A model generated the notes under the pieces. The model was not told where the DNA came from and ran no database searches. It worked only from the letters and a program-made list of their open reading frames with translations. Position numbers and translations under genes: made by a program. From Microcoleus sp. (lineage in GTDB: Bacteria > Cyanobacteriota > Cyanobacteriia > Cyanobacteriales > Microcoleaceae), in the NCBI GenBank assembly GCA_042408215.1, contig JAYFMW010000008.1, forward strand, positions 160,001-224,000: 64,000 nucleotides of DNA, written 5' to 3'. Below, in pieces: positions 6,427-36,737 of the stretch; the stretch's first letter is position 1; each line of letters opens with the position of its first letter.

Positions 6427-9400
6427 TTACTCCTCAACAACAACTACTTGTTTGGGGTCAAAAACTATATAGTATAGCATCATTTCTGGGCTTCTAGTCG
6501 CGATCGCATCATACCCCTGAGATTTGAGATCCTCTACATATCTAACCGTCCGCTCTGGTTCTTGTAGACCAGTTTCCTGACCGTAATTAGCTACCCGCTC
6601 ATCAAATTCAGTTAAATCCTGATAAACTTTGGGGTTTTTTACGTTCAGCATAATCTTTAATATCGGACCCTGCGTTGGATTGCCATTCTCATCACTGCTA
6701 AAATCCTTAGCCCTCTCCTCCAGATTTGTCAAATAAAAACCTTCTCCGAAGAAACCTCTTGTGAACCTACCAGGATTTACACCAATATTCGTAATACTAC
6801 TAGCACCCGCTGGGCTAGTTCCATGATAGAGCGTGCGTCCGCTGTAGTAGCTATTTTTTGTATATTCTTCAGCCTCAGCCAGAGTCATAGAAGGTTCCCA
6901 CTTCTTGCCAAAAGAAATATCGTCAAGGTAAACAGTGCCGTCATTGATTTCAAACTTGAGTAAAGCTGCCTTACCGCGCAGTTCTTCCGGGAGATTTAGG
7001 TAGAAAGTTTCCAAGCCTTCAGTACCATAACCGATCTTGCGAATATTGCTGTCGAGCTCTGGACCAGAGCTATTTATTCCAGATACTCGCTCTAAATCGA
7101 TAGTTCCTATTGACGTAAACTGTTCGTAACCAGCTACGTCTGCTCTCAGAGAAACCGTAATTTTTCTTCCCGCACCGAGTTGGTCTTCAGGTACGTGCAG
7201 GTCGAATTTCAAACTATCGTGTAAGCTGTTTTGATCGGGGACAAGAAATAGATTATGAATTATTTCTTTAGGTCCATCGGTTCCTCCCATCTTCAAGGTA
7301 TAGTTTTTTCCCGCCAAACCCGGGTTTAATATTCTTTGCTCTTCAGTTAAAAAGGTATCAATCTCATCCCGTTCATGCAGATGTCTTTGCGACACATTAG
7401 GATTGTCGGATACACTTAAAGAGTTGTAAAAAGACCAGCCTGGAACACTCTGAGCTGTAAAACGTTTGCTGGCGTCAAAATTACCATTGAAAAGGGTGGG
7501 AACTGCATAGTCACCTCGCATCTTGTTACCTATAATTTCGTCTGTGTAGGTATTGTCCTCAGTTACGGGGACACGGTTACTTACGTTAGCATCATAGGGG
7601 CGTAATTGAGAGCCACCACCCAGTACCGAGTAAAACCAGCCAGTACCGATACCTTCCCAAGGAGCTCGTTGTTCACCGTGAGTAAAATTAGCATTCGTAT
7701 GATCGGGTGTGTACCACGTAGGTGTGGTTGGATTGCCTGAACTATCTAGTTCCAGATCTCCAAGCCGACGGTAAATCCTCTCTCCATTCTTTGAGGGGAG
7801 TTGACTTCCGCTAAGGTTAGTTGTTCCTCCATACCAAGTTAGAGCCTGCATGGGAGGCTTTCCATCCGTGCTATTTTCAGTAAATCCAATCCGGCTCGAG
7901 CCACCAGAACCACCAAGGTGTACGTTCCAATCCGCCTCTGCAATTCGCCGACCAGGACGGGTATTGGTTTCCTGTGTCTCCAGAGCGGGGACGTCTTGAT
8001 AATAGTTATCGGCATAGGTAACATTTTCCCAGATCCGCACTTCTGGATCGCGGAAGCTTTTTAAGGAGCTTACAAAGTAATCTTGGTCGAAATCATGAGG
8101 ATCGATCGTTGTCATCTGGAGGTCGCGGTTTACAAGGCTAGTACCACCAGCGAGGGGAAAATAAGTCCCCAAACGCTGGACAATTTCATTGTCGATCGCT
8201 GCACCCTGACCAAACCCAATAAAGTGCATAGGTGAATTGAAAAGGGTGTTTTCCAAACTTTGATTTAAAGCTACCAGTGAGGCAAAAAAGGCATCTGCGG
8301 CTGCCTCAGTAAAGCCAGAGTTAAATGCGGTTGCTTCTGGCGGCTGTTCCCATCCAGGGATTAGTATCAGTGGTGCGCCAAATTTATGAGTTGGAGGGGA
8401 GAAGGTTGTGGAGCCATCAAAATTCAGCCACCCCCATTTGTTAGTAGCCCGATCGTAACGCATGACCAAACCATTTTCTTTAGTCAGGTGAGAAGCCATC
8501 TGCTCGAATTGGCGGTCTATCAAATTAGATTGAGGTTCTAAGCCCCGCGTTAACACCGTAACGCTGCTGAAAGTATTGCCACCAGAAATCGGAGCCGGCA
8601 GTAAAGTCTTAAACTTGTCGGTAACAACTTTTCTTTCCCTTTTGTTCGTCACAGCTTCCACAGCCCAATGATATTCCTGGCCCGCCGTCAAAATTCGGTC
8701 ATTAGAAAGAGTAAACTCCTCAGAAGAACCAGCCTTATTACCTCCATTCCAAGTCCAGGTACCATTCTTCCATTGAGCAGTCAGAACCCGATTCGGATTG
8801 TAATCTTTTTCGACAGTCGGATTTAACCCCGACCACCGATCGCCCGGCAACAAGCCCTTCCCTTGCGGAAAAACGCTTACATAAAGATTGACCTCATCGA
8901 CATCAGTATCGGGATTAAAACCAGTCAGACCGCATTCTTCACCGTCACCCTTCAAATCCCATTTAAAAGTAGGAGTTAGAGGATTGCTTTCACTCTCGCT
9001 AGTACCAATCGGCCCCTCTAATTCCAGCCAGTTTTTAACAGAAGCTATTGCCAAACCTTTAGGATTTCCACCGATACCAATTGGAGCGCGGTTCGTGCCT
9101 TCTGGTACGCTAAAGGTAAAGTTATTAATCCAATTTCCCCCGGTAATTTCGTAGTCAGCGGCAATACTGGCCAAAGGGTTGATATCGTCAATAGGCACGC
9201 GGGCGAGGTCAGCAACAGTCGCATTTCGCTCAGTGTTAGTCACGAAACCAACGCTACCCACACCCCTGTCGCGGGCGTCAAGCTTGTAATTACCCGGATT
9301 CTCTATAGCCTTAATCATTTCCTCAACATCGAAAACGTAGGAACTTCCTCCTAGCTCTAGGGTGGGATAGGAACCAATCAAATATTTGCCGTCGCTCGAA

Positions 9401-11457
9401 AGCGCTAGGTTGTTAGTTAAGCTGTCGGGAATCGGTCGAGTCGCAGCCACCAATTGAGGATTGGGCCCCAGCGGGTTTGCGATAATGCCGATATTTCCAC
9501 CCTCGCGCGTATTTACATTTGCCCTAGAGTTGCGGCCGGCAACAAAGGCATATTTCCCGTCTTGCGTTACTGTTACAGCCACTGCCTCGTTGACATCAAA
9601 ATAGTCAGTGGCCGCGCCCAGCGACAAAGGAGCGTAGCGAACTTCAGCATTAAAGTTGAGGGGGTCATCAGACGTAATGGAGAGCACGCCAAAGCCTTTG
9701 CCGTCATCCTGAAGCTTTATCTGTTCCCCATTACTTATGGCAAGGACACTAGCAAATCCGTTGGTGAACACCATTTTCATCGGGTCGGAAGTAGCAGCTA
9801 TGCCCTCTGTCTCCGATGCGGTGGGAATTACTCCAATCTGCTGGTGCCACTTCCGCTCGTTAGCACCCTGAGCGCTAGGTTTGTCGGCGGGGTCAATGTT
9901 GACAGCGTAAATGCGGCGGTTAGGTGTTTGTTCGTTATTGTCGGAACCTGTGGCGAACAGTCGCCGCCCGTCGCTGCTGATAGCTAACTGGCTCAGTCCC
10001 AGCGGCGATGAGACGTTAATTGTCTCGACAACGGTATGATAAGTTGCCGAATTCGGGTTAATGTCGAGAACGTAGATGTTGGGGCGATTTTGGTCGGCAA
10101 TGTAAGCATAATTGTCTTTGGGGTCAATGATAATACCTTGCGGTCTGGCCCCTGGAGGCAAGCTAATTGCATCGACAGTCTCCGTTTCCTTGGTGGTGTC
10201 TATTTCTCGCAGCGCTATCAAATCCACTACCGAAACGCGGCCGGTGTCGCGCAGAGTCACGTAGGCGCGGGTGGCATTGTTGGTAGCTGCTATCGACTCC
10301 GGTCGGTCTGATGTATTGGGATTACCTACAGGAATGTTAATAGCAACCGCCAATTTATCGCTGGTCTGGGTTTCAACAGTTGATAAAGGGTCTTTGAGAT
10401 TAATAACGTTGATTTTGTCGCCCGTGCGTTCGGTCACCAGCGCCAATTCAACGCAGGTAGGGGCGAGGCGGATATTTTCTTCACTTTCTAGTTCGACAAT
10501 CTCGTAATCTCCAGTACCCAGTCCGAAGCGCTTTTTCTGCTTCCTCGACACTACAATACTGGATTCGCCGACGGGTACGGTAATCGGAATTTTAACGGCA
10601 ATTCTGTAGCTATTTTCTCCCAAATCGGTGTTTTTATCCGGTATCAAAATGCCTGGATAAGTTTTGTAGCCGACGCGGAAACTAACTGTTAAATCCTCAA
10701 ATTTACCGCCCAAATCATTGGAGTTATTCAGGAAATTGCTACCTGTCAGGACGACTGTTGGATCGCCATTTTCTAACTTAAATTCAGCGGATTGAAGCAC
10801 TGGAGGTGCGAAGGGGTCTGCTGGGAATAATGTGGGTATATTTACAGTCGCTGTGACGCTGGGAATTCCTTCTGGGTCGAGTTCGACACCCGCCGGAGTG
10901 ACTACAGGTAAACCGACTTGTGGAATGGCGATGACTTTCAATCCAGATTGCAGATATTTAGCTAAGTAAGCAAGGAGTAAGATTGTAGCGGCGAATTGGG
11001 CTCCGGTAGCGGCGGCGATACCGATTAAACCTGCATTTGCTGCTAAAAAGGTGCTTTGGAGACCGAAATTAGTTGAGAGGTTGAGTGCACCAGCAGTTTT
11101 TGTGGCAGCATCTACAGTTGCGATAGTTGCGATATTAAGCAACTGTTTCAGTGTCAGAGCTGGAGCTGGAGCTCCTAGTAACCCTAGAGTTGGCCATATA
11201 AACATCGAATATTCGCCACTGTCCAAAACACCAGGAAATGGTGGGGAATTGGTTCGGATAGTGCCCGAAGCATCGACGTAGCCGGATTCTTGAATCAGCC
11301 AAGTTGGGTTTTGAATATTGTTAGCATCCGGCAGCGAACCTTTTCGCATGAATAAAATTTCGGTACCGGGAGATAAGCCGGCGGGGGCTGGAATTGCTAA
11401 TTGAGCGGGCAATTTCAGAGATTCATCACCCGTCTGGAAGTTGTAGCGATAGAGCAT
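6427..11457 (-). CDS. Open 3' part of the giant toxin gene (beta-propeller region and ART-like toxin domain)
   Basis: 1676-codon ORF; propeller blades such as PQGIIIDPKDNYAYIAD and LAISSDGRRLFAT; HGT and GxGFY motifs in the last ~150 aa. Confidence 0.7.
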   Translation of the reverse strand: MLYRYNFQTGDESLKLPAQLAIPAPAGLSPGTEILFMRKGSLPDANNIQNPTWLIQESGYVDASGTIRTNSPPFPGVLDSGEYSMFIWPTLGLLGAPAPALTLKQLLNIATIATVDAATKTAGALNLSTNFGLQSTFLAANAGLIGIAAATGAQFAATILLLAYLAKYLQSGLKVIAIPQVGLPVVTPAGVELDPEGIPSVTATVNIPTLFPADPFAPPVLQSAEFKLENGDPTVVLTGSNFLNNSNDLGGKFEDLTVSFRVGYKTYPGILIPDKNTDLGENSYRIAVKIPITVPVGESSIVVSRKQKKRFGLGTGDYEIVELESEENIRLAPTCVELALVTERTGDKINVINLKDPLSTVETQTSDKLAVAINIPVGNPNTSDRPESIAATNNATRAYVTLRDTGRVSVVDLIALREIDTTKETETVDAISLPPGARPQGIIIDPKDNYAYIADQNRPNIYVLDINPNSATYHTVVETINVSSPLGLSQLAISSDGRRLFATGSDNNEQTPNRRIYAVNIDPADKPSAQGANERKWHQQIGVIPTASETEGIAATSDPMKMVFTNGFASVLAISNGEQIKLQDDGKGFGVLSITSDDPLNFNAEVRYAPLSLGAATDYFDVNEAVAVTVTQDGKYAFVAGRNSRANVNTREGGNIGIIANPLGPNPQLVAATRPIPDSLTNNLALSSDGKYLIGSYPTLELGGSSYVFDVEEMIKAIENPGNYKLDARDRGVGSVGFVTNTERNATVADLARVPIDDINPLASIAADYEITGGNWINNFTFSVPEGTNRAPIGIGGNPKGLAIASVKNWLELEGPIGTSESESNPLTPTFKWDLKGDGEECGLTGFNPDTDVDEVNLYVSVFPQGKGLLPGDRWSGLNPTVEKDYNPNRVLTAQWKNGTWTWNGGNKAGSSEEFTLSNDRILTAGQEYHWAVEAVTNKRERKVVTDKFKTLLPAPISGGNTFSSVTVLTRGLEPQSNLIDRQFEQMASHLTKENGLVMRYDRATNKWGWLNFDGSTTFSPPTHKFGAPLILIPGWEQPPEATAFNSGFTEAAADAFFASLVALNQSLENTLFNSPMHFIGFGQGAAIDNEIVQRLGTYFPLAGGTSLVNRDLQMTTIDPHDFDQDYFVSSLKSFRDPEVRIWENVTYADNYYQDVPALETQETNTRPGRRIAEADWNVHLGGSGGSSRIGFTENSTDGKPPMQALTWYGGTTNLSGSQLPSKNGERIYRRLGDLELDSSGNPTTPTWYTPDHTNANFTHGEQRAPWEGIGTGWFYSVLGGGSQLRPYDANVSNRVPVTEDNTYTDEIIGNKMRGDYAVPTLFNGNFDASKRFTAQSVPGWSFYNSLSVSDNPNVSQRHLHERDEIDTFLTEEQRILNPGLAGKNYTLKMGGTDGPKEIIHNLFLVPDQNSLHDSLKFDLHVPEDQLGAGRKITVSLRADVAGYEQFTSIGTIDLERVSGINSSGPELDSNIRKIGYGTEGLETFYLNLPEELRGKAALLKFEINDGTVYLDDISFGKKWEPSMTLAEAEEYTKNSYYSGRTLYHGTSPAGASSITNIGVNPGRFTRGFFGEGFYLTNLEERAKDFSSDENGNPTQGPILKIMLNVKNPKVYQDLTEFDERVANYGQETGLQEPERTVRYVEDLKSQGYDAIATRSPEMMLYYIVFDPKQVVVVEE

Positions 11458-14400
11458 TGCTGGTTAGAGATGTCAAGCTAATAGCTGTATCTTCGGCAAG
11501 AGCACTCCTCGGCACCATCACAATTGAACCGTCACTGCCAGTAACTGCACCGCCATTTACTCCTAAAATTGTTCCGGCGGCGGCAGGAAGGGAGACTCGT
11601 ACTGGTACGACTTGTTCGGCTGCTCCGTGAATGACGGTGACGTTAGTAACTCCTTCTTCTATTGCAGTAATAAGGCCGTCTGAATTCACTTGCAATAAGT
11701 TGGAGTTTCCGGGGAAATAGCGAGTTCCTACTGAGCCGAATTTCAAATCGGGGGATTTGATGATATTTTCAATTCCTACTAAAAGCGAGCGTCCCATTCC
11801 GGCTGTCATGGTGACTGCTTTGGGATAGACATTCAAACCGTTAATCTCGGCTAGTGCTCCATTGAATTCTGCATCGTTGGTGGGGGCTGGCAATTTTCCT
11901 ACTCGCACCGCTGTTACTGCTTGCAGGTTGTTGCGACTTGCGCTCAAAACTGAAGTACCGTTGACCAAACCTGTCACTTTACCAGTTGGATCAATTGGTG
12001 CTACTTCTGGATTTATTGAAGTGTAAGTTAGATAAGAATCTGGCAGCACTACACCTTTTTGGTCGGCAAAATCTCCGAGCACAACTAATTCCGTATTCTG
12101 TCCTGCATTGAGCTGCGGATTACGCTTCACAAAATCCAAATTCAGCAGGGGAATGTCGCTGACGTTGACTGTTACCCGCGCGGGAATAGAACTCCCAAAA
12201 CCGTCGCTGGCAAGGAAATCAAAGCTAGCAATTCCAGAGAAACTGGTTGCTGGTTTGAACGATGCTTTGTTAGTTAAGGGATTGAAAATTACTGTGCCGT
12301 TTACTGGACCCTGGACGCTAATTGTGAGAGGGTCGCCTTCTACATCTGTGGCAAGATTGTCTAATTAAATAGTTGTCTCTAATTCTGTATAAGTCCGAGC
12401 GCTTGTCGGTGAAACAACGGGCGGATTGTTATCAGAATTCGGGGGATTAGCTGCTGCGAGCAATTGTTGTCCTAAGGTCGTATTGCGCCATTCTTTGTCA
12501 GGATTGATGACTGTATCTAGCAGCGGTGCGTTTCCTATTGCGCCACTAATTTTAAAGATTAGGTCATTGTAATCTCTGTCCGAGTTAGCGGCCGACATAT
12601 CTTCGAGGGCGAAGGTGTTGCCGGTGCCGGTAATATCGGCTATTTGTAGCAGATGAGCGGTATCGTTGGGATTGGCTGTGGCGATACTAAATAAGGGACG
12701 GTTTTCGGGGAACCAATTTCCCGAATACGAGGATTGGAGGGATGATTGTATTGTAGCGTTGGGGACTAACATGACGGCAAAGGTGTCGCCTGGTAGCATG
12801 GAGAAAGTTTTGATACCCTGATATTCGCCGCTGCCCCAATCCCCGTCGAAGGGCATCGCACCGGTGAATTTTGCTCCTTCTGTACTGTCGCGGATTACAA
12901 CGTTTCCTAATGTGGAATTAGTTAGGACTCTCCTAGCAGCTTCGGCGATGAATTCTGGAGTACCAGGTGTAAATGCTTCCATTCCTGAAAGGCTGAAAAT
13001 GCCGACTTCGCCAGTAAAGTACCCGCCGTCAAACTGATAGTCAAATTTGACTTTTCCTTGGTCATCTACAAGGAAAGTGCCGGGATTGGGTGAGTTGGCT
13101 GCTGCTGTTATTGAGAGATTTGTTGGGGAATTGGTATTGGTTTGGAAGTCGCCTGTACGCTGTGTTGAATTGGGTTGAGTGTCTGCAATATTGTCTGAAA
13201 ATTGAGCAGAGTTTTCGGTCGCTGACGCTAGCAAAGCGCTGGTTATCTCTGGGGATTGCGGCGCAATTTTGGTATCAGAATACGCAGGTAAAACAGCGAC
13301 AGTTTCTGTTGGACTTGAATTGCTATTATAATTGTTTGAAGTTGGTTCAGGTGGGGATTTAAGAGTTGAGGGTGAAGCGCTGGTTTCGACTGAGGCTATC
13401 TGTGCCGTACCTGCTGCTGTTTCTGATGGAGTTGAGAAGAGTGCTGGGCTTTTCTCAGTTTCTAATTCCGCTGCTGTTTCGGAAACAGTAATGTTCCGTT
13501 CGATTGTATCAGCAGTGAATTCTGCTGTCGATAGCGAATCGGTTTTTGTTGGCAATTCGCTTTCAAGTTCTGATGTTATTTCAGGAAAAGCGCTCTCATT
13601 TTCTACCGTAGCCGAATCGTTTTTTGTGGGAATAATTGACTCGGTTTTTGTTGGTAATTGTTCGGCGGCGCTAGAAACATTGGAGTGGGTTTCTTTTGGT
13701 GATTGTTCGCCCACATTAGAGCTGAGTAAGTCTGTTTTTGCAGGAGAATTTTCTGCAAGTGGAGCGATAATTGACTCTGTTTCTGCGGGGGGTTGAGAAA
13801 TGCTTGCAGTTACAGTTGTGTCGGTTTTGATTAATTCAGCATCTGCTGATAGACTGACAATAGATTCTGTTTTAACTGGCTGTTTAATTTCCGAAAGTGA
13901 GTCAGTATTGTTCGGAGTTTTTTCTGGGGTTTTAACTGCTGCTGTTGCTGTCGTCACCGCTACATTTTCACTGGCTGCTGTTTTTGGTATTGCAGCAGGT
14001 TCGGTTTTTAATGGGTCAACTTTTCCTGAATCATTCTGTTTGTCAGTTAAAGATTGAGTAGCGGTTTGTACTGGCTTTTGTAAATCGGTTGATTTGACTT
14101 CTGCACTGATATTAGTGTCAGGTAAAACTGGGTTAGATGTGGCTGGAATTAATTGGGCTGTTGGGAGCTGTGTTGTCGGCGGCAGTTGAGAATCTGAAGG
14201 GGGTTTTTCTGTCGGTGTTGCATCGATTGTTGGGGATTTTTTGTCTGAGTCTATCAGGGTAGCTTCGGCAACAGGAAGCTGTTTGTCTGACTTTTTTATT
14301 TCTGAAGTTGAGGCAATTGGAGCTTTTTTATCGGAGTCTATTTTGTCAGAAACTTCGGCAGTACGAGATTGTTCGCCTGAGTTGGCTTTCTCCACAATTG

Positions 14401-22843: not shown

Positions 22844-22849
22844 GGGTCA

Positions 22850-23253: not shown

Positions 23254-23347
23254 CTCCCCATCCCCAAAAAGGAATATGGTAAATAAAACAATCAGTAAGT
23301 TACAATTAGACTTACAATAATTAAGGAGTTATGAGGAATGTGTAAAT

Positions 23348-27096: not shown

Positions 27097-27103
27097 TTCA
27101 CAC

Positions 27104-27390: not shown

Positions 27391-27400
27391 ACTCCTTAAG

Positions 27401-27931
27401 CTAAACCATGTATTCCCAGCCTTTTTCATTCTCAATAAAGCTCTTAATATCAGATTTAAAACGCTTTAGAAAGCCGAGAAAATCATTAGATAATAATTTG
27501 ATATGTTTTGTTTGCCCATCGAATGTCCCATGATAAACAGATCCGGCAGGCAAATACAATACCTCATTATGTTCATCAACACGTAGTGCAAAGCGACCAC
27601 CACCACCATCCGATCCGAAAACTATTATTTTACAATTAATAGGTTCAGATATTCTAACTGGTTCACCGTTTTCAATTCCTCTTAGAATACCTTCAATTGT
27701 GTGGATGTAATAGCCCACATAAACATCTGGAAGATTGAGTCCATCACATTGCTCAAAGAAGGATATAAAGGAAGATGATGAAGCTAGTCCTGATATTGTC
27801 ATCAGATGGGGTAATAGTGTGTTGTTCCCTGGAATTCGGATCATATTATCCCCTAAAGGATAATTGAAGGCTATTTCGTTCATTTTTTTCAACATTAAAT
27901 TAACTTCATCTATCCATTTAATTACGTTCAT
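27401..27931 (-). CDS. SMI1/KNR4 (SUKH) family immunity protein
   Basis: F...CDGL.L, IIVFGSDGGGGRFAL..EVLYL; AGGAG RBS right after the toxin stop. Confidence 0.8.
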   Translation of the reverse strand: MNVIKWIDEVNLMLKKMNEIAFNYPLGDNMIRIPGNNTLLPHLMTISGLASSSSFISFFEQCDGLNLPDVYVGYYIHTIEGILRGIENGEPVRISEPINCKIIVFGSDGGGGRFALRVDEHNEVLYLPAGSVYHGTFDGQTKHIKLLSNDFLGFLKRFKSDIKSFIENEKGWEYMV

Positions 27932-27941
27932 TTAGTCTCCT

Positions 27942-30900
27942 TTATTGAAACCAGTGCTGGCTGTATTGTCGATCTATCTGTTTTGCAAAATTTTCAATTT
28001 GCAATCGAGTTGCACTCGGATTTGAACGTTGAAACTCTGCCCAATCATTTGTGATCTGTTGGTGAATGTTTTCGTCAGCGCGAGAGCCTTTAACTCCACG
28101 AATGTTTGAGGGAGCGTGATAATCAAAGTTTTGAAATTCTGGATGGTCTTTGTAGAACTGAGGTATGGCATGATGAGCATCCCAATCATCTGGGAGCCTG
28201 GGTTGACCTTTAGCAGCTCTGTCTGCATTATACCTGCCACGGTAATTATCAGGTGCTGGGACTCTTGAACTGACCACCTCGTCAACTTTCCCTTTAAGAA
28301 AAGCAAACGCTTTATCCACTTTCTGTGGAACTTCTCGCCTTAGTTGCCGAACATTGTCTGCTAGATCGGCAAAGAACCCTTCATTCGGCAATTTTCCAAT
28401 TACATACTCATGCTGAAGGATACCCAGCTTGGGTAGTAGGTTGTCAAATGAGCGAATCCCATCATTGAGTTTCCGTAATAACCCTTCGATAGTATCCAAA
28501 ATCTTGAGGTAGAAATTTTTAGACTTGGTAGCTAGTGAGTCCCAATCAGTTCGCTTCGCAAAATCAACAACAGCATCAACAATAGTAGGACCTAGCTTTC
28601 TCATTTCTGTCACGAAATCAGCATTGCGAGCTACTTTGGTGACACCTTTAATAGCCCCTCCTGCCACTGGAACCAGACCAACTAAGGAACCGACAACACC
28701 CACCCAGTTCCAAGCATCTTGCATCTCAGATGGGTTATCGATAAATTTCTTAGTGTAGGCAATCAAGTCACGAACATCACCAATTTCTCCAGCAATCGGA
28801 ATCATACCAATTGCAGAATCAAGCAGAACTTGCCAGATTGAGGGATCATTATTAAATTCTCCCATCAAAGCACCGATGACAAAGTTGCTAGCACTACCTA
28901 AGCCATTAACAAAATCATCAAGTAAACGTTTGTAGAGATTGCCTTGATCTTTGATCGCCTTCTCTACACCTGTTCGAGTGGCAGCAATCTTAGCATCGAC
29001 TCCATTAATTTGATTCCACAAGTGACCTGTCTTGTCTCCCAAAATGGCATTGACAATATCCGCCACCGTCTTCTGAGTGCGAGGTTCAATCCAATCAATA
29101 ATCCCCTTCAGACCACTTCCAATTCCGCTAATTGTCGATTGGAAACCATCCGCAACACCATCCACCGCAGGCTTGACAATGTTGTTGTAAACATTGAAAT
29201 TAAACTTAACACCATACTGATCGACATTGATGCCAAGATTTTTCGTCCAATCAGTAGCGCTCAGGACGTGACCTTTGAACTCTCCAATCAGATTATTAGC
29301 ACCTCGAACGGCTTGATCGACCTTAGTTCGGAAAGTTTGAGCCGCATTCGCAATAATCTGATTAATCTCTGCTCCAGTGCGGTAGGCATTCTTGATCGTA
29401 TCAAAGAATTGCTGGATTGCTGAATTCACTCCATTTTGAATCTCAATTAGCTTACCTCTGAGCCAACTACGAGCGCTATTAACCGCACTCGTGACAGCAT
29501 CTCGTCCTTGGCGAATTAACCATTTAGCGTCATTTTTCCGATCTTTTACCCAGCCAATTCCGTAATCAGGAACTTGATTTACTGTGTTTTCTAAGCTATT
29601 CGCAAACGAATTAGCTTTATTGATAATCCCATCAGCCAGATTATCAACTTGACCCTTAATCGGATTAGCAATGCCATCAACCCAAACATTGGCATTATGA
29701 CGAGCATCATCCAAAGCCTGATGAACCTTTTGCCGTTGCTCCGCATTCATCTGGTCGAGCAACTCTTGCATCTGTTGCTCATAGCTGCGCTTCTCGCGCT
29801 CAAGTTCGGCAATCTTGGCATTAGCCTTAGCCCGCTCTGGCACTGAAAAATTCGCCAATGCCGTATCATAAATGCGCTGAATACGCGAATCGCTGAACAG
29901 TGAGCCAGAAGCCCCACCGCCACCACCACTATTGCCATTACCACCAACTTTCCACCCTAAAGGTGGCCCTATTTCTGATTGAGAGAGCTTGTGTTTGAAC
30001 TTAACAATCAGCTCGTAATCCGTCGTCACACCTTTAGGACTATTGACTCGCAGCATATAAGTACCAGGAATCAAATCAGCAATAATTTGCTCATCCGTAA
30101 TTCCCTCCCGCATCGAATAGGCAATAGGTTCATTCCGCACATCGTAGAGAACCAAATCTGCATCAGCCAACAGCTTTTTCAGTTCAGCCGTAATCCGACC
30201 ACCGCGAGACAAAGTAAAGCGATAGTAATCATCCGGCACCAAATGTCCAACTGTTTCACCCGTTAAAGATGTCTCAAACGGATCGACAGGCCCAAACTCA
30301 GGCATAGGCTTGGCAAGATACCAATCCAATCCTCCCTTACCTTGCTGACGAGCAATCTCCGCTTGACGAGCCAACTCAGCCAACCGCGCTTCTTCCAGAC
30401 GGCGTTCTTCCTCTTGGCGACGGCGTTCCATTTGTTCACGCAAACGCCGTTGTTGGTCTTCAAGTTCCCGTTGCTGGGCTTCCGCTTCCCGTCGCCGTGC
30501 TTCCTCTTCTTGACGAACTCGCTCTTGATCCCGCGCAAAAGCCTCTTCCTGTTCCCGCCGAATACGAGCTTCTTCTTCCTGCCGCTGCCTTAATTCTGCT
30601 TCGCGCTGTAGCCGTTCTGCCTCTTGTTCTTGCTCATAGTTGGGATGCCAGACTGGAATCCAACCTTCATTGCCTTGGACAATCCAGTTAGGATCGGGAA
30701 AACCATTCTTATTGGAAATAAATCGCCAATAATCCGGGTCATTAGCTTTCGCAATAGCAGAACGATGGTCGTCCTTACTAGGATGTGTCATCCGTTGAAG
30801 AACGTAGTCGCTAATCGTATGACCTTGCCGCCAGTTTCCAATAACAATCTTTTCCCAATCGTAATACTCGCCATTCTTCGAGAACCGTTCCGCGTGCGCC

Positions 30901-33900
30901 CAGATTTCTGGCGACACCTTATCGGGGTCAACCGTCGGCATAATCGGAGCAATATACTCCGCACCCGGTTCCTCAAAAGAAGTTTCAGCCAGTTCTCGGA
31001 AGGCTTCAAGCTGCTCTGGCGTTAAATCATCAACCCTGAACCCTTGACCGCCAAACAACCCAAAATCTGGAGTTGCCCCCTTCAAATTCACCTCGTAACC
31101 CAAATCGGCCAAAGATGCAATAGTAACAGGGCTAATCGGCGCATTGCCAGCCTTGCCGCTGAAGTTCAAATCAGCCGTCATCACCTCATCTTGGAACAGC
31201 GCCTCATTCCAGTGGAAACCAGCCGAACCTTTACCCTCAGTTTCCAGAGAAATAGCATCAGTCAAACCGCCCAAATCTTTGAACGCATCAACCGCCTTTC
31301 CACCGTTATACTGAGCCAGTGGCGTACCCGCATAATTCACCAAACCCTTAGCTTCCCAAAGATTCCCAAAACCCAAAGCGTGTAAAAACTCGTGCTGCAC
31401 AACGCTAAACAACTTTCCAGAACGCTCCAACTCGGCAATATCCGCTGCATCAAACTGCACTAAAGATTGAGCGGGCAACATACTTCCGTAGCGCATGAAA
31501 TCAATTTTAGTTCGCGCTTGAGTGCCGCTGGCACCGTCAATATTGGCAGTGGAAATCTTGATATTGATATCGTCAATAATCTTGCCGTCAACCACTGCAC
31601 TCGGCAACCCTTTGCCAATTAATCCAGCCACACTTTTTGCAGCGGCTTGCATAATCGCTTGTTGCGAAGCACTCAGCGGCGTTTCATATTCCAGATCGAT
31701 ATTAAACGGCTCAGTCGCGGTACTCTCAAAACCAGAGAGAACGTAAGTTGCAGGATCGGCATTGCGTTGGTCAATTTTGACAATCACCTCTGCTGGTGCA
31801 TTGGCTGGCAACTGCAATTTATGACTGCCCTTGCTGAAGGATTGAGTCCCCAATAATTGTCCAGAAGTTGTCAGGTAGCTGACGGATAAGTCGCCTGAAA
31901 GGACGGAAAACTTAGCACCATTTAAGTAGCGACTGTCAACCCGATAAATATCCGACGGATCGACGCTGCTAACCTGATCGATGACATCTTCGGTAGCGGA
32001 AGGAATCAGTTGCGTTGCATTAGCAAGATTATTGCTGCCCCGATCGACATTTGTTTGAGGAATTCCAGGGACTTTCACCGTAGGATGAGTCGGATCTCCT
32101 GGTAACTGCTTGGCGATCGGATGTTGAGAAATGAAGACATCGGTAATACTTCGCTGTCCGGGTTTAAGCGTGTAAAGTTCCGGTATAGTTACCTTTGCCA
32201 ACTGCACCGCAGCCGCCACATTCAGCAAGCCAGACCCAGTTTGAGCGTCCCAATTAGGTCGATCGAGGTCTGTAGCAGTACGCTTGATAATGTCAATTGC
32301 CTGAGTGTAATTCAGCTTGGGATTTGCTGCTAAAATTTGGGCGATCGCATTCGTGACTTCAACAGCAGCAACCTCTGTGCTGGATGTATTGCCACTGCTA
32401 CCGTTAGCGAGAATATCGAGAGTATTGCCGCTACCGGAATAATCTGCCAATTTAAAGGCATTGGATAGTGCAACGGAATCGTTAAATCGTTGAGCCGCAC
32501 CGACAGTAACTACGTTGTCAACTTCCTTAGATAATAGACCGAGAGCCGACATTGTGCCTGAGTTATCTCCAGCGGGAACAACAACAATAACATTGTTCTG
32601 ATATGCGTAGGCGATCGCCGATCGTTCTGCTGCCGTTAATTCCTTGCGGGGAATCACAGTTCCATCAGGCTGAGTTTGAGTCAGGTTGATGTTAATATTA
32701 ACAACGGCATGGGGTTGCTTCGATACCTTAGCAGCATCCACAAATTTAATCAGAGATTCTACCCACTGACTCGAATTATCTTGAGTGCGATCGACTGGCT
32801 GCGACGGGTTATTTGTGCTATTTTCTGGTTTTTCCCCTGCAACAATCAGACTCTTTTCCTCAGCAGGATTATCGACAGTCAAGCCAGTATCGTTGATAAA
32901 ACCGACCAAAGGGCGATTTTCGACAGGAAACTCAAATTGTACTGCTTCGACTGGTTCGACTGGTTTAGGTTCGACTTTCACAACCATATCTTCCAGCCGC
33001 GAAATCAACGCCGCTGTATTATCCGAAATAGGATTCGAGCCAGTTTGCTCCCTCAACTTCTCAGTCATGGCTTCCAAACGAGCAATCGAAGTGCGATCGA
33101 TCGCATTTTCGGCAACAACATCAGCACCACCCAAATTACTCAAACGCTGTTTAATGCTATCCAATCGCGCAATCCAATCAGCATTGACATTATTATTGTT
33201 TTGTGCTAATTCCTGCTTAACCGATTCAGTCACCGCCGCAGTCGAATTATCCTCAGTTGGTTTTGCAACAGTTGGAGAAATTGGCAATAACTCTTTTGGT
33301 GCAGCATCATTAACACCAGCAGTCTCAGTCTGAGTAACTATCTCCTTGTTCCGCAAGTCTACAGCAGTATTCGTACCTACAACTGGCATAGTTTTCGCTG
33401 CTGTCGGCGGCACAATCGCTGGAGTTTCTTTACTCTCAACCGCCGCTGTTGGCTGACTTTCCTTCACCGACTCTACAGGATTTGCGGCTACAACAACTTG
33501 AGTAGTTTCAGTTTTCTCTACCTCAGTTACTAAAGCCGGCTTTGTTTCTACCTTTGTCAGACTTTCCGCTGGCAAAACTGATGGCTTTGTTTCTACCTTT
33601 GTCAGACTTTCCGCTGGCAAAACTGACGGCTTTGTTTCTACCTTAGCCTGACTTTCCGCTGGCAAAACTTCGGGTTTAGTCTCTACTTTTGTCAGACTTT
33701 CCGCTGGCAAAACTTCGGGTTTAGTCTCTACTTTTGTCAGACTTTCCGCTGGCAAAACTTCGGGTTTAGTCTCTACTTTTGTCAGACTTTCCGCTGGCAA
33801 AACTTCGGGTTTAGTCTCTACTTTTGTCAGACTTTCCGCTGGCAAAACTTCGGATTTAGTCTCTACTTTTGTCAGACTTTCCGCTGGCAAAACTGACGGC

Positions 33901-36737
33901 TTTGTTTCTACTTTCGCCTGAGTTTCCGCTGGCAAAACTTCGGGTTTTGTTTCTACCTTTGTCAGAGTTTCCGCTGGTAAAACTGACGGCTTTGTTTCTA
34001 CTTGTGTCAGAGTTTCCGCTGGCAAAACTTCGGGTTTTGTTTCTACTTTCTCAGTTGGTATCGTTGCAGCAACTTCCGTCTCAGTAGTAGATTGAGCTGG
34101 CAAAGTTGGCATCGCTGGTGCTTCGGTAACTTGGTCTTTTACCTCAGTTGTCGCTGCGGGAATAGGCGTTTTTTCAACTGGTAAATTTTCAGTCGAATCC
34201 GCCACAGTATCTTTGCCAGCAGTTGGTGTAGTTGTCGCACCTGTTGTCGGATTTGCATCTACCTTGTCGGTAGTTTCAACCTGAGTCGAATCACCCGAAT
34301 TATTCGCAATATCTTTGACTTTTTCCTCAGTCGTCACCGCTGGAGTAGTAGGCTTTGCATCTACCTTGTCGGTAGTTTCAACTTGAGTCGAATCACCCGA
34401 ATTATTCGCAATATCTTTGACTTCTTCCTCAGTCGTCACCGCTGGAGTAGTAGGCTTTGTATCTACTTTGTCGGTTGTTTCAACTTGAGTCGAATCACCC
34501 GAATTATTCGCAATATCTTTGACTTCTTCCTCAGTCGTCACCGCTGGAGTAGTAGGCTTTGCATCTACCTTGTCGGTAGTTTCAACTTGAGTCGAATCAC
34601 CCGAATTATTCGCAATATCTTTGACTTCTTCCTCAGTCGTCACCGCTGGAGTAGTAGGCTTTGCATCTACCTTATCCGTTGGTACAATCTTGGTTGCATC
34701 AGTAGTATTGGTGTCGGTATTTGCGACAGGCGCTGGAGTTTTTGGAGCCTCTTTATCTGAAGTTGATGGATTCAGAATTTCCGTTTCTAAATCATCAAGT
34801 AAATCCGATAATTCAGCATCTACATTTGGTTTTGGTTCCGGGGTAATGTAAGGTTTCGCATAAGCAATAAGTGCCTTGCCCAAATCAGTTTTCCGCCAAT
34901 CTTTATCCGGGTTAATCGAAGTATCCAACAAAGCAGTTGTTGCCGTCGCACCCCGCACTTGGAAAATGATATCATTATAATCCCTGTCAGTCCCCGAATC
35001 TAACCGCATATCCTCCATAACAAAGGTATTGCCTTCTCCCGTGAAATCCGCAATTTGACCAAAGTGAAATCCCTCCACAGGATTCGCCATAGCCATAGAA
35101 AATAAAGGACGTTGAGCACCCCCAATAGTCGGATTATCAAACACAGACTTTACACTACCATTGGGTATCAACATCACCCCATATTTACCCCCTGGAGTTA
35201 CCGCAAAACTCTTGACTCCTAAGTAGGCTCCTTCATTAGCATTACTCTCTCCTAACACACCAGAAAACCGCGCACCTTCTGTAACATCATCAATCACTAC
35301 ATGACCTTTCACAGAGTTACTTAAAGAACGTGCAGCTACTTCTTTAATGAATGCTTCCGAACCAGGTTCAAATTTCTCTAATCCGTCCAAACTGAAAAGA
35401 GCTAACTCACCTTGGAACATCCCACCATCAAATGTGTAGTCTACACGAATTTGACCACTTTGATCCGTAGTAAATATCCCCGATGTAAATGGAAAAATTA
35501 ACTTTTTGTCCGTAGTTTGTTCTAGTTCTTTTGTGGTTTCAGCAGTCGGTATTGAAGTATTTGCATTCTCTGTTTTGGTGTCTTCCCCGTTGCTGGTGGC
35601 GGTATTCGGTTTGTCCCCTGGCTTGGTGGCATCTGGGGAAGTAGCAACTGGTTTGTCGGTAGTTGCTGATGTTGTTGCAGCCGCAGATTCAGTCGCGGCT
35701 ACAGGTTTTTCCGGTTCCGATGTGAGAGTTGTTTCGGAGGTTGTAGCAACTGGTTTGTCGGTAGTTGCTGATGTTGTTGCAGCCGCAGATTCAGTCGTGG
35801 CTACAGGTTTTTCCGGTTCAGATGTGAGAGTTGTTTCGGAGGTTGTAGCAACTGGTTTGTCGGTAGTTGCTGATGTTGTTGCCGCCGCAGATTCAGTCGC
35901 TGCTACAGGTTTTTCCGGTTCAGATGTGAGAGTTGTTTCGGAGGTTGTAGCAACTGGTTTGTCGGTAGTTGCTGATGTTGTTTCCACCGCAGATTCAGTC
36001 GCAGCTACAGGTTTTTCCGGTTCAGATGTGAGAGTTTTTTCGGAGGTTGTAGCAACTGGTTTGTCGGTAGTTGCTGATGTTGTTGCAGCCGCAGATTCAG
36101 TCGCGGCTACAGGTTTTTCCGGTTCAGATGTGAGAGTTGTTTCGGAGGTTGTAGCAACGGGTTTGTCGGTAGTTGCTGATGTTGTTGCAGCCGCAGATTC
36201 AGTCGCGGCTACAGGTTTTTCCGGTTCAGATGTGAGAGTTGTTGCGGAGGTTGTAGCAACTGGTTTGTCGGTAGTTGTTGATGTTGTTTCTGTTGTTTCT
36301 GCGGTGACAGTCTTGTCATCAACAGGAGCTCCTGTAATTACATCTTTGTTGGTAGTGGGTTTTTCCGAAGTTGTGGTGCTGTTTGAGGAAAGTGGATCAT
36401 CTGATTTTGCGCCGGTGAGGGTGTCTGCGTCGGATGCTGGTTTAGTGCTAGCTGGTGCTAAATTCAGCGTGTATTTGATGTCGCCAGTTATCGGCAAAAC
36501 TTTGACTGGATAGTCTCCGGCTACTAAGCTGTCAGCGCTAATTGTTTCTGCACTGGTTCCCGCGTTGGTGGAAATGTAACCTGTTGCGCCGCTATTGTTT
36601 GACAATAATACGTCGGCATTCCCGCTTAAAACGTTGGGGGAAAATTCAAAAATTTTGGGAGTGTCGATATTTGTAGTGCCAACACTACCTGTGTAGGTTG
36701 TGCTGCCAGTCAATGCCCCGATGTTAAGTTCAGCCAT
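27942..36737 (-). CDS. Giant polymorphic toxin (2931 aa): Thr-rich repeats, DUF4114-type domain, degenerate subtilase-like region, zincin metalloprotease, PPC domains, coiled coil, pre-toxin TG-like region, HNH/AHH-like nuclease tip
   Basis: EDM...DRDYNDIIF; VVPAGDN and TGSGLLNVAAAV; HEFLHALG; DDYYRFTL..ADADLVLYD; IGMIPIAGEIGDVRDL; tip WDAHHAIPQ..SNI..IHQQIT; followed by a SUKH gene. Confidence 0.88.
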   Translation of the reverse strand: MAELNIGALTGSTTYTGSVGTTNIDTPKIFEFSPNVLSGNADVLLSNNSGATGYISTNAGTSAETISADSLVAGDYPVKVLPITGDIKYTLNLAPASTKPASDADTLTGAKSDDPLSSNSTTTSEKPTTNKDVITGAPVDDKTVTAETTETTSTTTDKPVATTSATTLTSEPEKPVAATESAAATTSATTDKPVATTSETTLTSEPEKPVAATESAAATTSATTDKPVATTSEKTLTSEPEKPVAATESAVETTSATTDKPVATTSETTLTSEPEKPVAATESAAATTSATTDKPVATTSETTLTSEPEKPVATTESAAATTSATTDKPVATTSETTLTSEPEKPVAATESAAATTSATTDKPVATSPDATKPGDKPNTATSNGEDTKTENANTSIPTAETTKELEQTTDKKLIFPFTSGIFTTDQSGQIRVDYTFDGGMFQGELALFSLDGLEKFEPGSEAFIKEVAARSLSNSVKGHVVIDDVTEGARFSGVLGESNANEGAYLGVKSFAVTPGGKYGVMLIPNGSVKSVFDNPTIGGAQRPLFSMAMANPVEGFHFGQIADFTGEGNTFVMEDMRLDSGTDRDYNDIIFQVRGATATTALLDTSINPDKDWRKTDLGKALIAYAKPYITPEPKPNVDAELSDLLDDLETEILNPSTSDKEAPKTPAPVANTDTNTTDATKIVPTDKVDAKPTTPAVTTEEEVKDIANNSGDSTQVETTDKVDAKPTTPAVTTEEEVKDIANNSGDSTQVETTDKVDTKPTTPAVTTEEEVKDIANNSGDSTQVETTDKVDAKPTTPAVTTEEKVKDIANNSGDSTQVETTDKVDANPTTGATTTPTAGKDTVADSTENLPVEKTPIPAATTEVKDQVTEAPAMPTLPAQSTTETEVAATIPTEKVETKPEVLPAETLTQVETKPSVLPAETLTKVETKPEVLPAETQAKVETKPSVLPAESLTKVETKSEVLPAESLTKVETKPEVLPAESLTKVETKPEVLPAESLTKVETKPEVLPAESLTKVETKPEVLPAESQAKVETKPSVLPAESLTKVETKPSVLPAESLTKVETKPALVTEVEKTETTQVVVAANPVESVKESQPTAAVESKETPAIVPPTAAKTMPVVGTNTAVDLRNKEIVTQTETAGVNDAAPKELLPISPTVAKPTEDNSTAAVTESVKQELAQNNNNVNADWIARLDSIKQRLSNLGGADVVAENAIDRTSIARLEAMTEKLREQTGSNPISDNTAALISRLEDMVVKVEPKPVEPVEAVQFEFPVENRPLVGFINDTGLTVDNPAEEKSLIVAGEKPENSTNNPSQPVDRTQDNSSQWVESLIKFVDAAKVSKQPHAVVNININLTQTQPDGTVIPRKELTAAERSAIAYAYQNNVIVVVPAGDNSGTMSALGLLSKEVDNVVTVGAAQRFNDSVALSNAFKLADYSGSGNTLDILANGSSGNTSSTEVAAVEVTNAIAQILAANPKLNYTQAIDIIKRTATDLDRPNWDAQTGSGLLNVAAAVQLAKVTIPELYTLKPGQRSITDVFISQHPIAKQLPGDPTHPTVKVPGIPQTNVDRGSNNLANATQLIPSATEDVIDQVSSVDPSDIYRVDSRYLNGAKFSVLSGDLSVSYLTTSGQLLGTQSFSKGSHKLQLPANAPAEVIVKIDQRNADPATYVLSGFESTATEPFNIDLEYETPLSASQQAIMQAAAKSVAGLIGKGLPSAVVDGKIIDDINIKISTANIDGASGTQARTKIDFMRYGSMLPAQSLVQFDAADIAELERSGKLFSVVQHEFLHALGFGNLWEAKGLVNYAGTPLAQYNGGKAVDAFKDLGGLTDAISLETEGKGSAGFHWNEALFQDEVMTADLNFSGKAGNAPISPVTIASLADLGYEVNLKGATPDFGLFGGQGFRVDDLTPEQLEAFRELAETSFEEPGAEYIAPIMPTVDPDKVSPEIWAHAERFSKNGEYYDWEKIVIGNWRQGHTISDYVLQRMTHPSKDDHRSAIAKANDPDYWRFISNKNGFPDPNWIVQGNEGWIPVWHPNYEQEQEAERLQREAELRQRQEEEARIRREQEEAFARDQERVRQEEEARRREAEAQQRELEDQQRRLREQMERRRQEEERRLEEARLAELARQAEIARQQGKGGLDWYLAKPMPEFGPVDPFETSLTGETVGHLVPDDYYRFTLSRGGRITAELKKLLADADLVLYDVRNEPIAYSMREGITDEQIIADLIPGTYMLRVNSPKGVTTDYELIVKFKHKLSQSEIGPPLGWKVGGNGNSGGGGGASGSLFSDSRIQRIYDTALANFSVPERAKANAKIAELEREKRSYEQQMQELLDQMNAEQRQKVHQALDDARHNANVWVDGIANPIKGQVDNLADGIINKANSFANSLENTVNQVPDYGIGWVKDRKNDAKWLIRQGRDAVTSAVNSARSWLRGKLIEIQNGVNSAIQQFFDTIKNAYRTGAEINQIIANAAQTFRTKVDQAVRGANNLIGEFKGHVLSATDWTKNLGINVDQYGVKFNFNVYNNIVKPAVDGVADGFQSTISGIGSGLKGIIDWIEPRTQKTVADIVNAILGDKTGHLWNQINGVDAKIAATRTGVEKAIKDQGNLYKRLLDDFVNGLGSASNFVIGALMGEFNNDPSIWQVLLDSAIGMIPIAGEIGDVRDLIAYTKKFIDNPSEMQDAWNWVGVVGSLVGLVPVAGGAIKGVTKVARNADFVTEMRKLGPTIVDAVVDFAKRTDWDSLATKSKNFYLKILDTIEGLLRKLNDGIRSFDNLLPKLGILQHEYVIGKLPNEGFFADLADNVRQLRREVPQKVDKAFAFLKGKVDEVVSSRVPAPDNYRGRYNADRAAKGQPRLPDDWDAHHAIPQFYKDHPEFQNFDYHAPSNIRGVKGSRADENIHQQITNDWAEFQRSNPSATRLQIENFAKQIDRQYSQHWFQ
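33540..34050 (-). repeat. 45-bp coding tandem repeat (KVETKPEVLPAESLT), about 11 copies
   Basis: Seen in DNA and protein. Confidence 0.9.
34255..34680 (-). repeat. 102-bp coding tandem repeat (TTDKVDAKPTTPAVTTEEEVKDIANNSGDSTQVE), 4 copies
   Basis: Seen in DNA and protein. Confidence 0.9.
35640..36280 (-). repeat. 102-bp coding tandem repeat (TTDKPVATTSETTLTSEPEKPVAATESAAATTSA), 6 copies
   Basis: Seen in DNA and protein. Confidence 0.9.

Follow-up and report, generated by a model that had tools for sequence, protein, structure and literature searches.

The window analysed here is a stretch of 64,000 nucleotides of Microcoleus sp. (assembly GCA_042408215.1, contig JAYFMW010000008.1), corresponding to positions 160001-224000 of contig C8 of a 7.36-Mb cyanobacterial genome, referred to as G000. 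It contains two giant genes on the reverse strand, gene 1 (6427-15427) and gene 2 (27942-36737; product P0001), which are probably members of one family of very large, modular exoproteins with a lectin-like head, polymorphic toxin tips and immunity genes. The common plan consists of a variable N-terminus, repeat spacers, a lectin-like domain of about 215 aa, accessory modules (usually a subtilase, often degenerate) and an exchangeable C-terminal effector. An initial annotation, made from the sequence alone, had described two genes of about 2,900-3,000 codons; this holds for gene 2, a single uninterrupted frame of 2931 codons, and not for gene 1, which is broken by two TAA codons and one frameshift. 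In the following, P numbers denote relative proteins, L numbers loci elsewhere and X1 to X5 public sequencing runs of other studies.

Relatives were searched among proteins of 1612-5130 aa at E ≤ 1e-5; at least 200 giant proteins carry the domain at this threshold. The nearest relatives of the two genes, by record names, come from Microcoleus, Tychonema and Lyngbya.

Exchange of tips at the gene 2 locus

The backbone of gene 2 is common to 12-16 relatives up to about residue 2640, the final stretch in common being 30-97% identical. The terminal 142 aa are matched by a single relative, P0047. Of ten backbone relatives analyzed over their final 330 aa, one has AHH, three have EndoU and one has a nucleotidyltransferase, the other five giving no match at E ≤ 0.001 or above cut-off. 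By clustering of the last 250 aa, 18 proteins whose domain is at least 83% identical to that of gene 2 were assigned to 10 C-terminal clusters. C-termini are not invariant in the family at large either, an outcome on which the initial annotation had staked its toxin reading: the same procedure, applied to 121 proteins, produced 56 clusters, 39 of which are singletons.

Loci in other genomes were compared by using the best 80 of 333 related loci, which contain 44 complete giants of at least 1000 aa. The upstream flank of gene 2, composed of ruvC and a chlI-like gene, is common to ten loci, with 84-95% nucleotide identity. At most of these loci the homology to gene 2 stops near 33423-32864, shortly ahead of the subtilase-like part, and the sequence beyond this point is another one. 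At L005, from Microcoleus sp. B6-A1, nucleotide homology is continuous to 28953, is then lost, and is back at 27124 at 95% identity. The replaced block (27124-28953, reverse strand) comprises the last ~337 codons of gene 2 and the partner gene; L005 carries in its place an EndoU tip (E 5.4e-20), preceded by another pre-tip segment. The data show that tips are exchanged by recombination at conserved sites of the chromosome, sometimes together with the partner gene and sometimes alone, and that orphan cassettes are left behind.

The conserved downstream flank of the locus (25918-27096, reverse strand) encodes a 392-aa protein with a DALR anticodon-binding-like match (E 4e-7), and is 95% nucleotide-identical in L005 despite the different tip.

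The gene 2 tip and its candidate immunity gene

The tip of gene 2 consists of its last ~110 aa (27945-28274, reverse strand), an HNH/EndoVII-like recurrent C-terminal module with the motif HH..IPQ..N..H. Among 1.84 billion representatives scanned, 202 clusters match the tip at E ≤ 0.001 (89 of them at E ≤ 1e-10), always at the C-terminus, within host proteins of 41 to 6210 aa. The alignment of 62 sequences gives the consensus ..WD.HH.IPQ...NLRGV.G.R...N.H..ITNEW.., where H77, P80 and H113 are invariant. Upstream of the tip, these 62 relatives carry PT-HINT (10/62), RHS (1/62) or PT-TG (1/62), according to Pfam; five of ten tip clusters looked up are named RHS repeat-associated, and one is a planctomycete cluster. 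The tip is homologous to the AHH-positive P0047 (BLASTP, 27.6% identity over 181 aa, E 7e-15), and AHH is reached, weakly, by 3 of the 62 tip relatives at E ≤ 0.01, the best E being 0.0019.

The structural model of the tip has a pLDDT of 90.9. Teneurin C-terminal domains, Cas9 HNH and the DNases of colicin E7/E9 and pyocin AP41 appear among the weak rows of the fold comparison; Foldseek gave no match at E ≤ 0.001, and a PDB profile search with the tip alignment gave nothing relevant. A wide search of the model with VIA, a comparison independent of Foldseek, was discarded: its rows are coiled coils aligned on the N-terminal helix (residues 1-48), uninformative on the catalytic core. From motif and homology, we read the tip as an HNH/EndoVII-type nuclease module, AHH-related, without a Pfam model of its own. 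Tips were also searched in 301 genomes of the window's own order: the gene 2 tip is present in the window's genome only, which suggests that it was acquired.

The gene located 10 nt past the stop of gene 2 (27401-27931, reverse strand) encodes a 176-aa protein, SUKH-1-like below threshold, and is regarded as a candidate immunity gene because it follows the tip and is replaced together with it. A PDB search with this protein gave no match, and it shows no similarity to the SUKH-HEAT protein found beside a paralog on contig C30, described below.

The gene 1 tip, its partner and the orphan cassettes

The initial annotation had noticed a toxin-like tip and a small downstream gene in both cases, and this is confirmed: an ART-PolyVal tip in gene 1 and the HH..N..H tip in gene 2 are followed by same-strand genes, 4 nt and 10 nt after the respective stops. 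The gene 1 tip corresponds to the last 159 aa (6430-6906, reverse strand) and is probably an ADP-ribosyltransferase (ART), matching PF18760 with E 6e-12 and 46.9 bits, compared with a cut-off of 31.2. The profile of the tip and its relatives matches exotoxin A and several PARP catalytic domains in the PDB (E 8e-5 to 1e-3), and the tip is therefore placed, provisionally, in the ART-PolyVal/H-Y-E clade. Among eight relatives the motif YHGT is found in six and GFY in four, and the conserved near-C-terminal residue, as we read the alignment, is an invariant Gln, not Glu. This tip is present in 7 of the 301 genomes of the order.

The gene lying 4 nt past the gene 1 stop (6225-6422, reverse strand) encodes a small Cys/His protein of 66 aa (copy 1), a candidate immunity protein to the ART tip. 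Homologs are found directly downstream of an ART tip in five of six other loci, with a spacing of 8-36 nt; four of these loci are outside the genus, and their ART identity is only 32-37%. Genome G056 contains a three- to four-fold array of tips and partners, and loci L083-L086 contain single pairs, with ARTs 32-37% identical. Free-standing ART open reading frames (ORFs) of 154-155 aa, each followed by a small Cys/His homolog, are found at L084, L085 and L086 (genomes G584, G448 and G474), so that ART and small protein also constitute a two-gene module outside the giants. Because C7, C10, C24 and H42 are invariant in the small proteins, these are probably zinc-binding.

Further copies lie beyond this pair, all on the reverse strand. 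An orphan cassette at 5938-6198 combines a remnant of the last ~18 ART-tip codons with copy 2 of the small protein (83% identical), and copy 3 (52% identical) is located at 3197-3403. An orphan C-terminal fragment of Endonuclease_NS (EndoNS), followed by a pentapeptide-repeat gene, occupies 4110-5097. The grammar of polymorphic toxins, claimed in the initial annotation, is borne out by tips which differ on a common backbone, by the linkage of ART and partner elsewhere, and by the orphan cassettes downstream.

Contigs of runs X1, X3 and X5, compared with window positions 6000-6422, show joints from 6381 to 6099 and from 6286 to 6000, stepping back by ~285 bp, which suggests that the copy number of the small-protein cassette differs in related strains. 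A second, inverted pentapeptide gene (3539-4069, forward strand) lies near the orphan EndoNS fragment, and at least four more EndoNS fragments beside pentapeptide-repeat genes are found at ~97-114 kb of contig C7, downstream of an EndoNS-tipped paralog. Pentapeptide proteins, which are DNA-mimic-like, may be the immunity partners of EndoNS tips; the word "pentapeptide" is absent from the examined text of Zhang et al. 2012 (PMC3482391). A gene at 5228-5767 (reverse strand), located in the immunity island with the ART cassette on one side and the EndoNS cassette on the other, encodes a 179-aa homolog of OGFr_N, the N-terminal region of the opioid growth factor receptor (E 4e-34). No relevant literature linking OGFr to ADP-ribosylation was found.

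The lectin-like domain shared by the two genes

The products of gene 1 and gene 2 share a block of ~212 aa with 49% identity (E 3e-64), and show no other significant similarity, in agreement with the homologous domain of ~200 aa, and the divergence elsewhere, described in the initial annotation. Pfam DUF4114 spans only the last ~85 aa of the block (75.3 and 71.5 bits; cut-off 27); the whole block of ~215 aa aligns end to end in 23 relatives, with 49-67% identity, and is here called the extended DUF4114 domain. Residues D162, D172, Y173, N174 and D175 are invariant, and E161 and D170 nearly so, outlining an acidic D..DYND loop.

The domain model, built on the alignment of the relatives, has a pLDDT of 88. 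Foldseek gave nothing at E ≤ 0.001. VIA ranked PA-IIL (1gzt) first, with Z 6.1 and an rmsd of 3.2 over 105/114 residues at 20% identity, and thrombocorticin (7f91) second, with Z 5.7; the next, unrelated row has Z 3.7. The text examined of PMC9109919 describes the DUF4114 of Myxococcus PilY1.1 as calcium-binding and related to the PA-IIL, BclA and RS-IIL lectins, and proposes that it binds exopolysaccharide; in that of PMC11934332, the DUF4114-bearing sandwich of an Acanthamoeba mannose-binding protein is shown experimentally to bind mannose. The initial annotation had proposed a trafficking or surface-anchoring module. Since the modelled domain resembles a PA-IIL-type lectin, in agreement with PMC9109919, the comparison suggests adhesion or anchoring as the better supported function; nothing was found in support of trafficking.

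Organization of gene 2

The other parts of gene 2, all on the reverse strand, are here listed from the N-terminus. The N-terminus itself (36438-36737, MAELNIGAL...) is PPC-like, matches no Pfam family, and is 65-72% identical to the N-termini of 27 relatives. The extended DUF4114 domain follows at residues 415-630 (34848-35495; Pfam DUF4114 E 7.8e-21), flanked on both sides by Thr/Ser/Pro/Glu-rich tandem-repeat spacers, with units of 102 and 45 bp (33541-36288). Repeats of 102 bp are N-terminal to the domain and further repeats of 102 and 45 bp come after it; the individual arrays are 35641-36288 (x6.4), 34252-34673 (x4.1) and 33541-34049 (x11.3).

The next region (32200-32910) is a degenerate subtilase (S8)-like domain, which gives Pfam S8 E 1.8e-8 when searched as a segment (34.5 bits, cut-off 21.8). 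In this domain the Asp-His-Ser triad is incomplete, as the His segment is missing and a Thr stands at the Ser position; the aligned relative P0072 retains the complete D/H/N/S residues. A leishmanolysin (M8)-like metallopeptidase with the motif HEFLHALGF (31086-31475; Peptidase_M8 E 1.3e-4, 21.3 bits, cut-off 21) is separated by a charged coiled coil from a pre-peptidase C-terminal (PPC) domain (30039-30230; PF04151, E 1.1e-6). The tip is preceded by a helical pre-toxin region of ~500 aa with two Gly-rich hydrophobic stretches (28368-29927), which gives weak matches only. An Atlas search with this region gave a PT-TG cluster at rank 7 with a score of 0.84, a lead only; Pfam PT-TG was not detected in gene 2, and the PT-TG-like character of the region is not established.

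At 36668-37592 (reverse strand) a 308-bp unit is repeated three times in tandem, with 96% matches; it contains the region upstream of gene 2 together with the first 24 codons of the gene. In the two copies farther upstream, short dead-end ORFs start with MAELNIGALTGRTTYTG. At related loci the unit is single-copy, by alignment.

Distribution, N-termini and C-terminal ends of the family

The distribution of the extended DUF4114 domain was evaluated in 401 cyanobacterial genomes from 155 genera. It was found in 48 genomes and 26 genera; 46 of the 48 positive genomes belong to the window's own order, and in the window's own family 18 of 26 genomes, G000 counted, are positive. Most matches fall in open frames of 1,000-9,657 aa. 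G000 alone contains 13 DUF4114 matches at nine loci. By our own count Peptidase_S8 is present in 111 of 120 proteins among the matches listed, and the variable extra domains of the relatives include M23, CHAP, LysM, amidases, GH19/25/108, PA14, lipase, AHH, EndoU and nucleotidyltransferase. Frames of ~883-908 aa, made of four tandem domains and little else, are found at G044:C3, G372:C96, G288:C61, G166:C79, G116:C10, G122:C27 and G144:C1, all from a single family of the order.

The N-termini of 117 Met-starting relatives were assigned to type A (..FILEPILTPSG..; 44), type C, that of gene 2 (21), type D (16), type B, that of gene 1 (2), and others (34). No NCBIfam or Pfam model matches any N-terminal segment. 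When the 70 N-terminal aa of type A were searched among longer proteins, 11 of 43 candidates matched, 9 of them with DUF4114, too few to judge whether the leader is independent of the domain. The hypothesis of a double-glycine leader was dropped for type A, as the hydrophobic spacing, judged by eye, does not fit and GG is not conserved. In G000, a 1070-aa frame at C29:140764-143973 (reverse strand) has a type-A N-terminus (..KSFILEKIVTPSAG..), a full-triad subtilase, an SH3_3 domain and a C39-like peptidase end, without DUF4114; a type-A leader and S8 may therefore be combined in a protein that lacks the lectin-like head.

The last 350 aa of the 44 complete giants were assigned to families by Pfam. 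Murein hydrolases are the commonest ends, with 13 cases (M23 6, CHAP 4, Hydrolase_2 1, phage lysozyme 1, GH25 1). Wall-binding repeats only are found in 3, S8 in 4, the SBBP propeller in 5, other binding or repeat domains in 5, and EndoU, lipase and calpain in one each, while 11 of the 44 match no Pfam family. The domain is not specific to toxins, and the family is broader than toxins, since murein hydrolases are its commonest ends.

Genes for SurA-like/PPIC-type isomerases stand directly downstream of the giant at 4 of the 44 complete loci, in different genera (L012:16384-17247, L040:13761-14609, L054:15509-16285 and L050:10097-10876); these neighbours may be folding helpers for passage through the periplasm.

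Paralogs and export

Two paralogs in G000 are of special relevance. One, on contig C7, is intact, encodes 3204 aa and ends in Endonuclease_NS (E 5.5e-30); gene 1 aligns with it up to residue ~1522, after which the two diverge into ART and EndoNS tips. The other (G000:C30:1443-22652) encodes 7069 aa and combines a gene-1-type N-terminus, two DUF4114 domains, a YD-repeat shell with 28 YDxxG motifs (gene 1 and gene 2 have 0) and a NucA/NucB tip (E 2e-6); it is followed at 22661-23827 by a gene for a 388-aa SUKH-1 and HEAT-repeat protein. Because C30 joins the DUF4114 head to an RHS shell, the same head is used with and without an RHS cage. For the same reason, the separate, uncharacterised toxin class envisaged in the initial annotation is abandoned: the head is new, and the plan is that of known polymorphic toxins. 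The ends of contigs C13 and C15 are near-identical copies of 5' parts of C30, which suggests that repeats broke the assembly.

Neither gene 1 nor gene 2 contains a TPS, PAAR, VgrG, LXG/WXG, MuF, PrsW, PVC or RHS domain, according to Pfam and NCBIfam, and the initial annotation had rightly reported the lack of an RHS core and VgrG/PAAR in both, together with that of a signal peptide, judged by eye. In G000 as a whole, two genes of ShlB type and a single phage-sheath gene were detected, at a distance from the giant loci.

The interrupted frame of gene 1

Gene 1 is composed of four collinear pieces on the reverse strand, separated by an in-frame TAA at codon 51 (15275-15277), a second in-frame TAA (12365-12367) and a frameshift near 11417-11463. 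The pieces correspond to positions 14-64, 66-984, 986-1298 and 1305-2911 of the C7 paralog and to positions 1-50, 53-1314, 1316-1627 and 1634-1907 of P0031, from another Microcoleus; given this collinearity, each break is a single site. The first TAA is read through by P0031 and the C7 paralog, and the second by relatives. The start is more likely GTG 15427 than ATG 15388, judging from the AAGGAG located 8 nt upstream of the GTG and from the match to the P0031 start, MPLTDQIREP. The extended DUF4114 domain lies at 12440-13096 (Pfam DUF4114 E 1.2e-19), and Ig-like/cadherin-like domains (Pfam Big_9, Big_2 and Cadherin_5) at 11429-12364.

Exact matches are found across the frameshift in contigs of runs X1 and X2, over the second TAA (11992-12788) in an X3 contig, and over the first TAA (15190-15600) in X1 and X3 contigs; one of the matching runs may be the source sample. 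At 11417-11430 an X5 contig has 47 letters where the window has 12, and the difference, 35, or 2 mod 3, corresponds to the shift in frame from piece C to piece D. Since these lesions recur in contigs of other public runs, they are not an assembly artefact of this record alone, and we regard gene 1 as a genuine pseudogene of the lineage, in which the tip and the immunity array persist.

Evaluation of alternative readings

The proposed mechanism for these exoproteins is as follows. The giant protein would be exported; its lectin-like head would bind polysaccharide, either of the producer's sheath or slime or of the target surface, and the Thr/Ser/Pro/Glu-rich spacers would act as a stalk. The metallopeptidase would free the tip, the tip would enter a neighbouring cell, and kin with the immunity gene would survive.

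Several observations weigh against reading the genes as toxins in this way. As regards the gene 2 tip, it reaches no Pfam cut-off: its AHH (PF14412) score is 12.9 bits (E 0.11), below the gathering score of 22.3. The HNH fold matches are weak, with type I-F Cascade HNH at Z 4.2 and an rmsd of 2.6-3.0 over 62-63 aa. Its partner matches SMI1_KNR4 (PF09346) with E 3.8e-4 and 21.5 bits, under the cut-off of 25.4, and has just 4 homologs in a homolog search, all without Pfam annotation. At L005 the EndoU tip is not followed by any same-strand partner ORF of at least 40 aa before the conserved flank, and the 30 ORFs that lie closely linked or nearby downstream at the loci of the 44 complete giants match no known immunity family. 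The ends of these giants are mostly not nucleases, with a single nuclease (1/44) against 13 peptidoglycan hydrolases.

Export and display meet similar difficulties. No Sec-type signal is seen at either N-terminus (the hydrophobic segment was judged by eye), N-termini are of at least four unrelated types, a genome search gave no TssC or PAAR match, and no transporter is a conserved neighbour, the flanks of gene 2 being housekeeping genes. The lectin match is middling: the best Foldseek rows, PA-IIL/LecB, BclA, CV-IIL and RS-IIL lectins, have E 0.15-0.7. A processing role for the gene 2 subtilase is unlikely, as the domain is degenerate. Gene 1, as sequenced, is unable to give a full-length product.

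A bolder form of the toxin reading, which we put forward as tentative and rather doubtful, would see in the extended DUF4114 head and the signal-less N-termini an unrecognised mode of export or display for giant effectors. The lectin would serve as tether, a glycan receptor would select the filaments attacked in a mat, and nuclease, ART, RHS-caged and murein-hydrolase warheads would be interchangeable.

It is unlikely, to our judgement, that the giants are instead lytic or digestive exoenzymes (murein hydrolases, lipases, proteases and nucleases), secreted and tethered to the sheath, which act outside cells, for instance on extracellular DNA, prey or the walls of competitors, with the downstream genes encoding intracellular inhibitors that protect the producer until export. 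The prevalence of peptidoglycan hydrolase ends, accompanied by lipase, calpain, S8 and propeller ends, is what such enzymes would show, as is the lack of a delivery apparatus in the searches for TssC and PAAR; Endonuclease_NS is a family of secreted non-specific nucleases, and the SurA/PPIase-like genes directly downstream of 4 of the 44 giants hint at periplasmic folding. Anabaena NucA has an intracellular inhibitor, NuiA. An NAD-dependent ADP-ribosyltransferase, however, has no obvious extracellular substrate, and the gene 2 tip family rides on RHS and PT-HINT toxins, which are delivered into cells. The complete RHS shell of one paralog and the orphan arrays of tips and partners, a signature of polymorphic toxins, also speak for toxins rather than exoenzymes.

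That the giants are mainly structural proteins of the surface, sheath or gliding machinery, whose domain binds slime, with accessory enzymes and toxin-like ends as decaying passengers, appears quite improbable. This would agree with a family almost wholly contained, in the genomes sampled, within one order of filamentous cyanobacteria, with the broken gene 1, with the ~890-aa proteins of some genomes, composed of four domain copies only, and with the exopolysaccharide binding for motility proposed for the Myxococcus PilY1.1 DUF4114 in the examined text of PMC9109919. Gene 2, on the other hand, is intact over its 2931 codons, tip and partner included, and ART tip and partner remain linked across families. 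Close strains, moreover, exchange tips at one locus, which argues for diversifying selection on the ends rather than for a structural role.

Finally, that gene 1 still functions, by read-through, frameshifting or separately translated pieces, is very improbable: its pieces are long open frames, its tip and partner genes are intact and identical lesions in contigs of more than one study indicate that the form persists in nature, but the frame has suffered three independent lesions, which are of two kinds, no ATG, GTG or TTG occurs within the first ~290 codons of piece B, relatives read through all three sites, and nothing suggests recoding, as gene 2 has no internal stop in the same window.

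Comparison with known systems

Interbacterial toxin delivery in cyanobacteria is poorly understood. A literature search found no description of this family, papers and supplements outside the searched collection aside, and no relevant literature was found on polymorphic toxins of filamentous cyanobacteria or on toxin/immunity proteins of Microcoleus. The published papers found to name DUF4114 do not concern toxins, and Zhang et al. 2012 is not among them.

The grammar of polymorphic toxins was described by Zhang, de Souza, Anantharaman, Iyer and Aravind (2012; PMC3482391), whose examined text mentions adhesion domains that bind carbohydrate at the N-terminus and counts subtilisin as a processing peptidase. 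The present family resembles the systems described there in having a conserved N-terminal or central part with an exchangeable C-terminal toxin, a downstream immunity gene, orphan cassettes, adhesion domains near the N-terminus and internal peptidases; ART, HNH/EndoVII, EndoU, EndoNS and NucA/B tips are in common. It differs from them, within the same text, in lacking the signature leaders (TPS, PAAR, LXG/WXG, MuF, PrsW, PVC metallopeptidase, Sec signal), in the head, an extended DUF4114 lectin-like domain of which that text makes no mention, and in the many members that end in murein hydrolases or non-enzymatic parts. By sequence, variable tips, directly downstream candidate immunity genes and orphan tip fragments are all observed; a recognised secretion signature is not found in gene 1 or gene 2 with Pfam and NCBIfam.

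The relation to RHS/YD-repeat toxins is twofold: the gene 2 tip family ends RHS proteins elsewhere and the C30 paralog carries a YD shell, whereas gene 1 and gene 2 have neither YDxxG motifs nor RHS Pfam matches. The modelled head shows some similarity to the PA-IIL (LecB) family, 1gzt and 7f91 being its best structural matches, and to the DUF4114 of PilY1.1, whose domain family is described in the examined text of PMC9109919 as calcium-binding and lectin-related. Unlike PA-IIL (114 aa), it measures ~215 aa, with an N-terminal extension, inserted helices and a conserved tail (..NP.KDWR..LG..L..YA), and the proteins that contain it are 1,600-9,600 aa long; binding of sugar and calcium is predicted. 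Nuclease bacteriocins, such as colicin E7/E9 and pyocin AP41, similarly consist of a binding module, a long linker or translocation part and a C-terminal HNH-type DNase, with a small cognate immunity gene directly downstream; the present genes are ten-fold larger and chromosomal, and have no lysis gene.

With one recognisable head, dozens of warheads, several paralogs per genome and at least 200 giants, almost all in one order, the family offers a handle on competition or kin discrimination in mat- and crust-forming cyanobacteria such as Microcoleus. It provides three kinds of candidate toxin-immunity pairs: ART with a new 66-aa Cys/His protein, an unmodelled HNH-like tip with its partner, and EndoNS with pentapeptide-repeat proteins. 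It also poses the question of the export route for proteins of 3,000-9,000 aa without a signal peptide, in a genome where neither a T6SS sheath nor a PAAR gene was detected.

Other features of the window

The window also contains rbcL-rbcX-rbcS and a bilin reductase gene, among similar genes. About 20 kb from gene 2, genes for an HlyD-family membrane-fusion protein, an FtsX-type permease and an ABC ATPase stand in a row (56840-61173, forward strand), in the manner of a DevBCA-like tripartite exporter. A DNA polymerase III tau/gamma-like gene (62472-63998, forward strand) overruns the window end and contains an intein splicing match (E 7e-5, below the Pfam cut-off).

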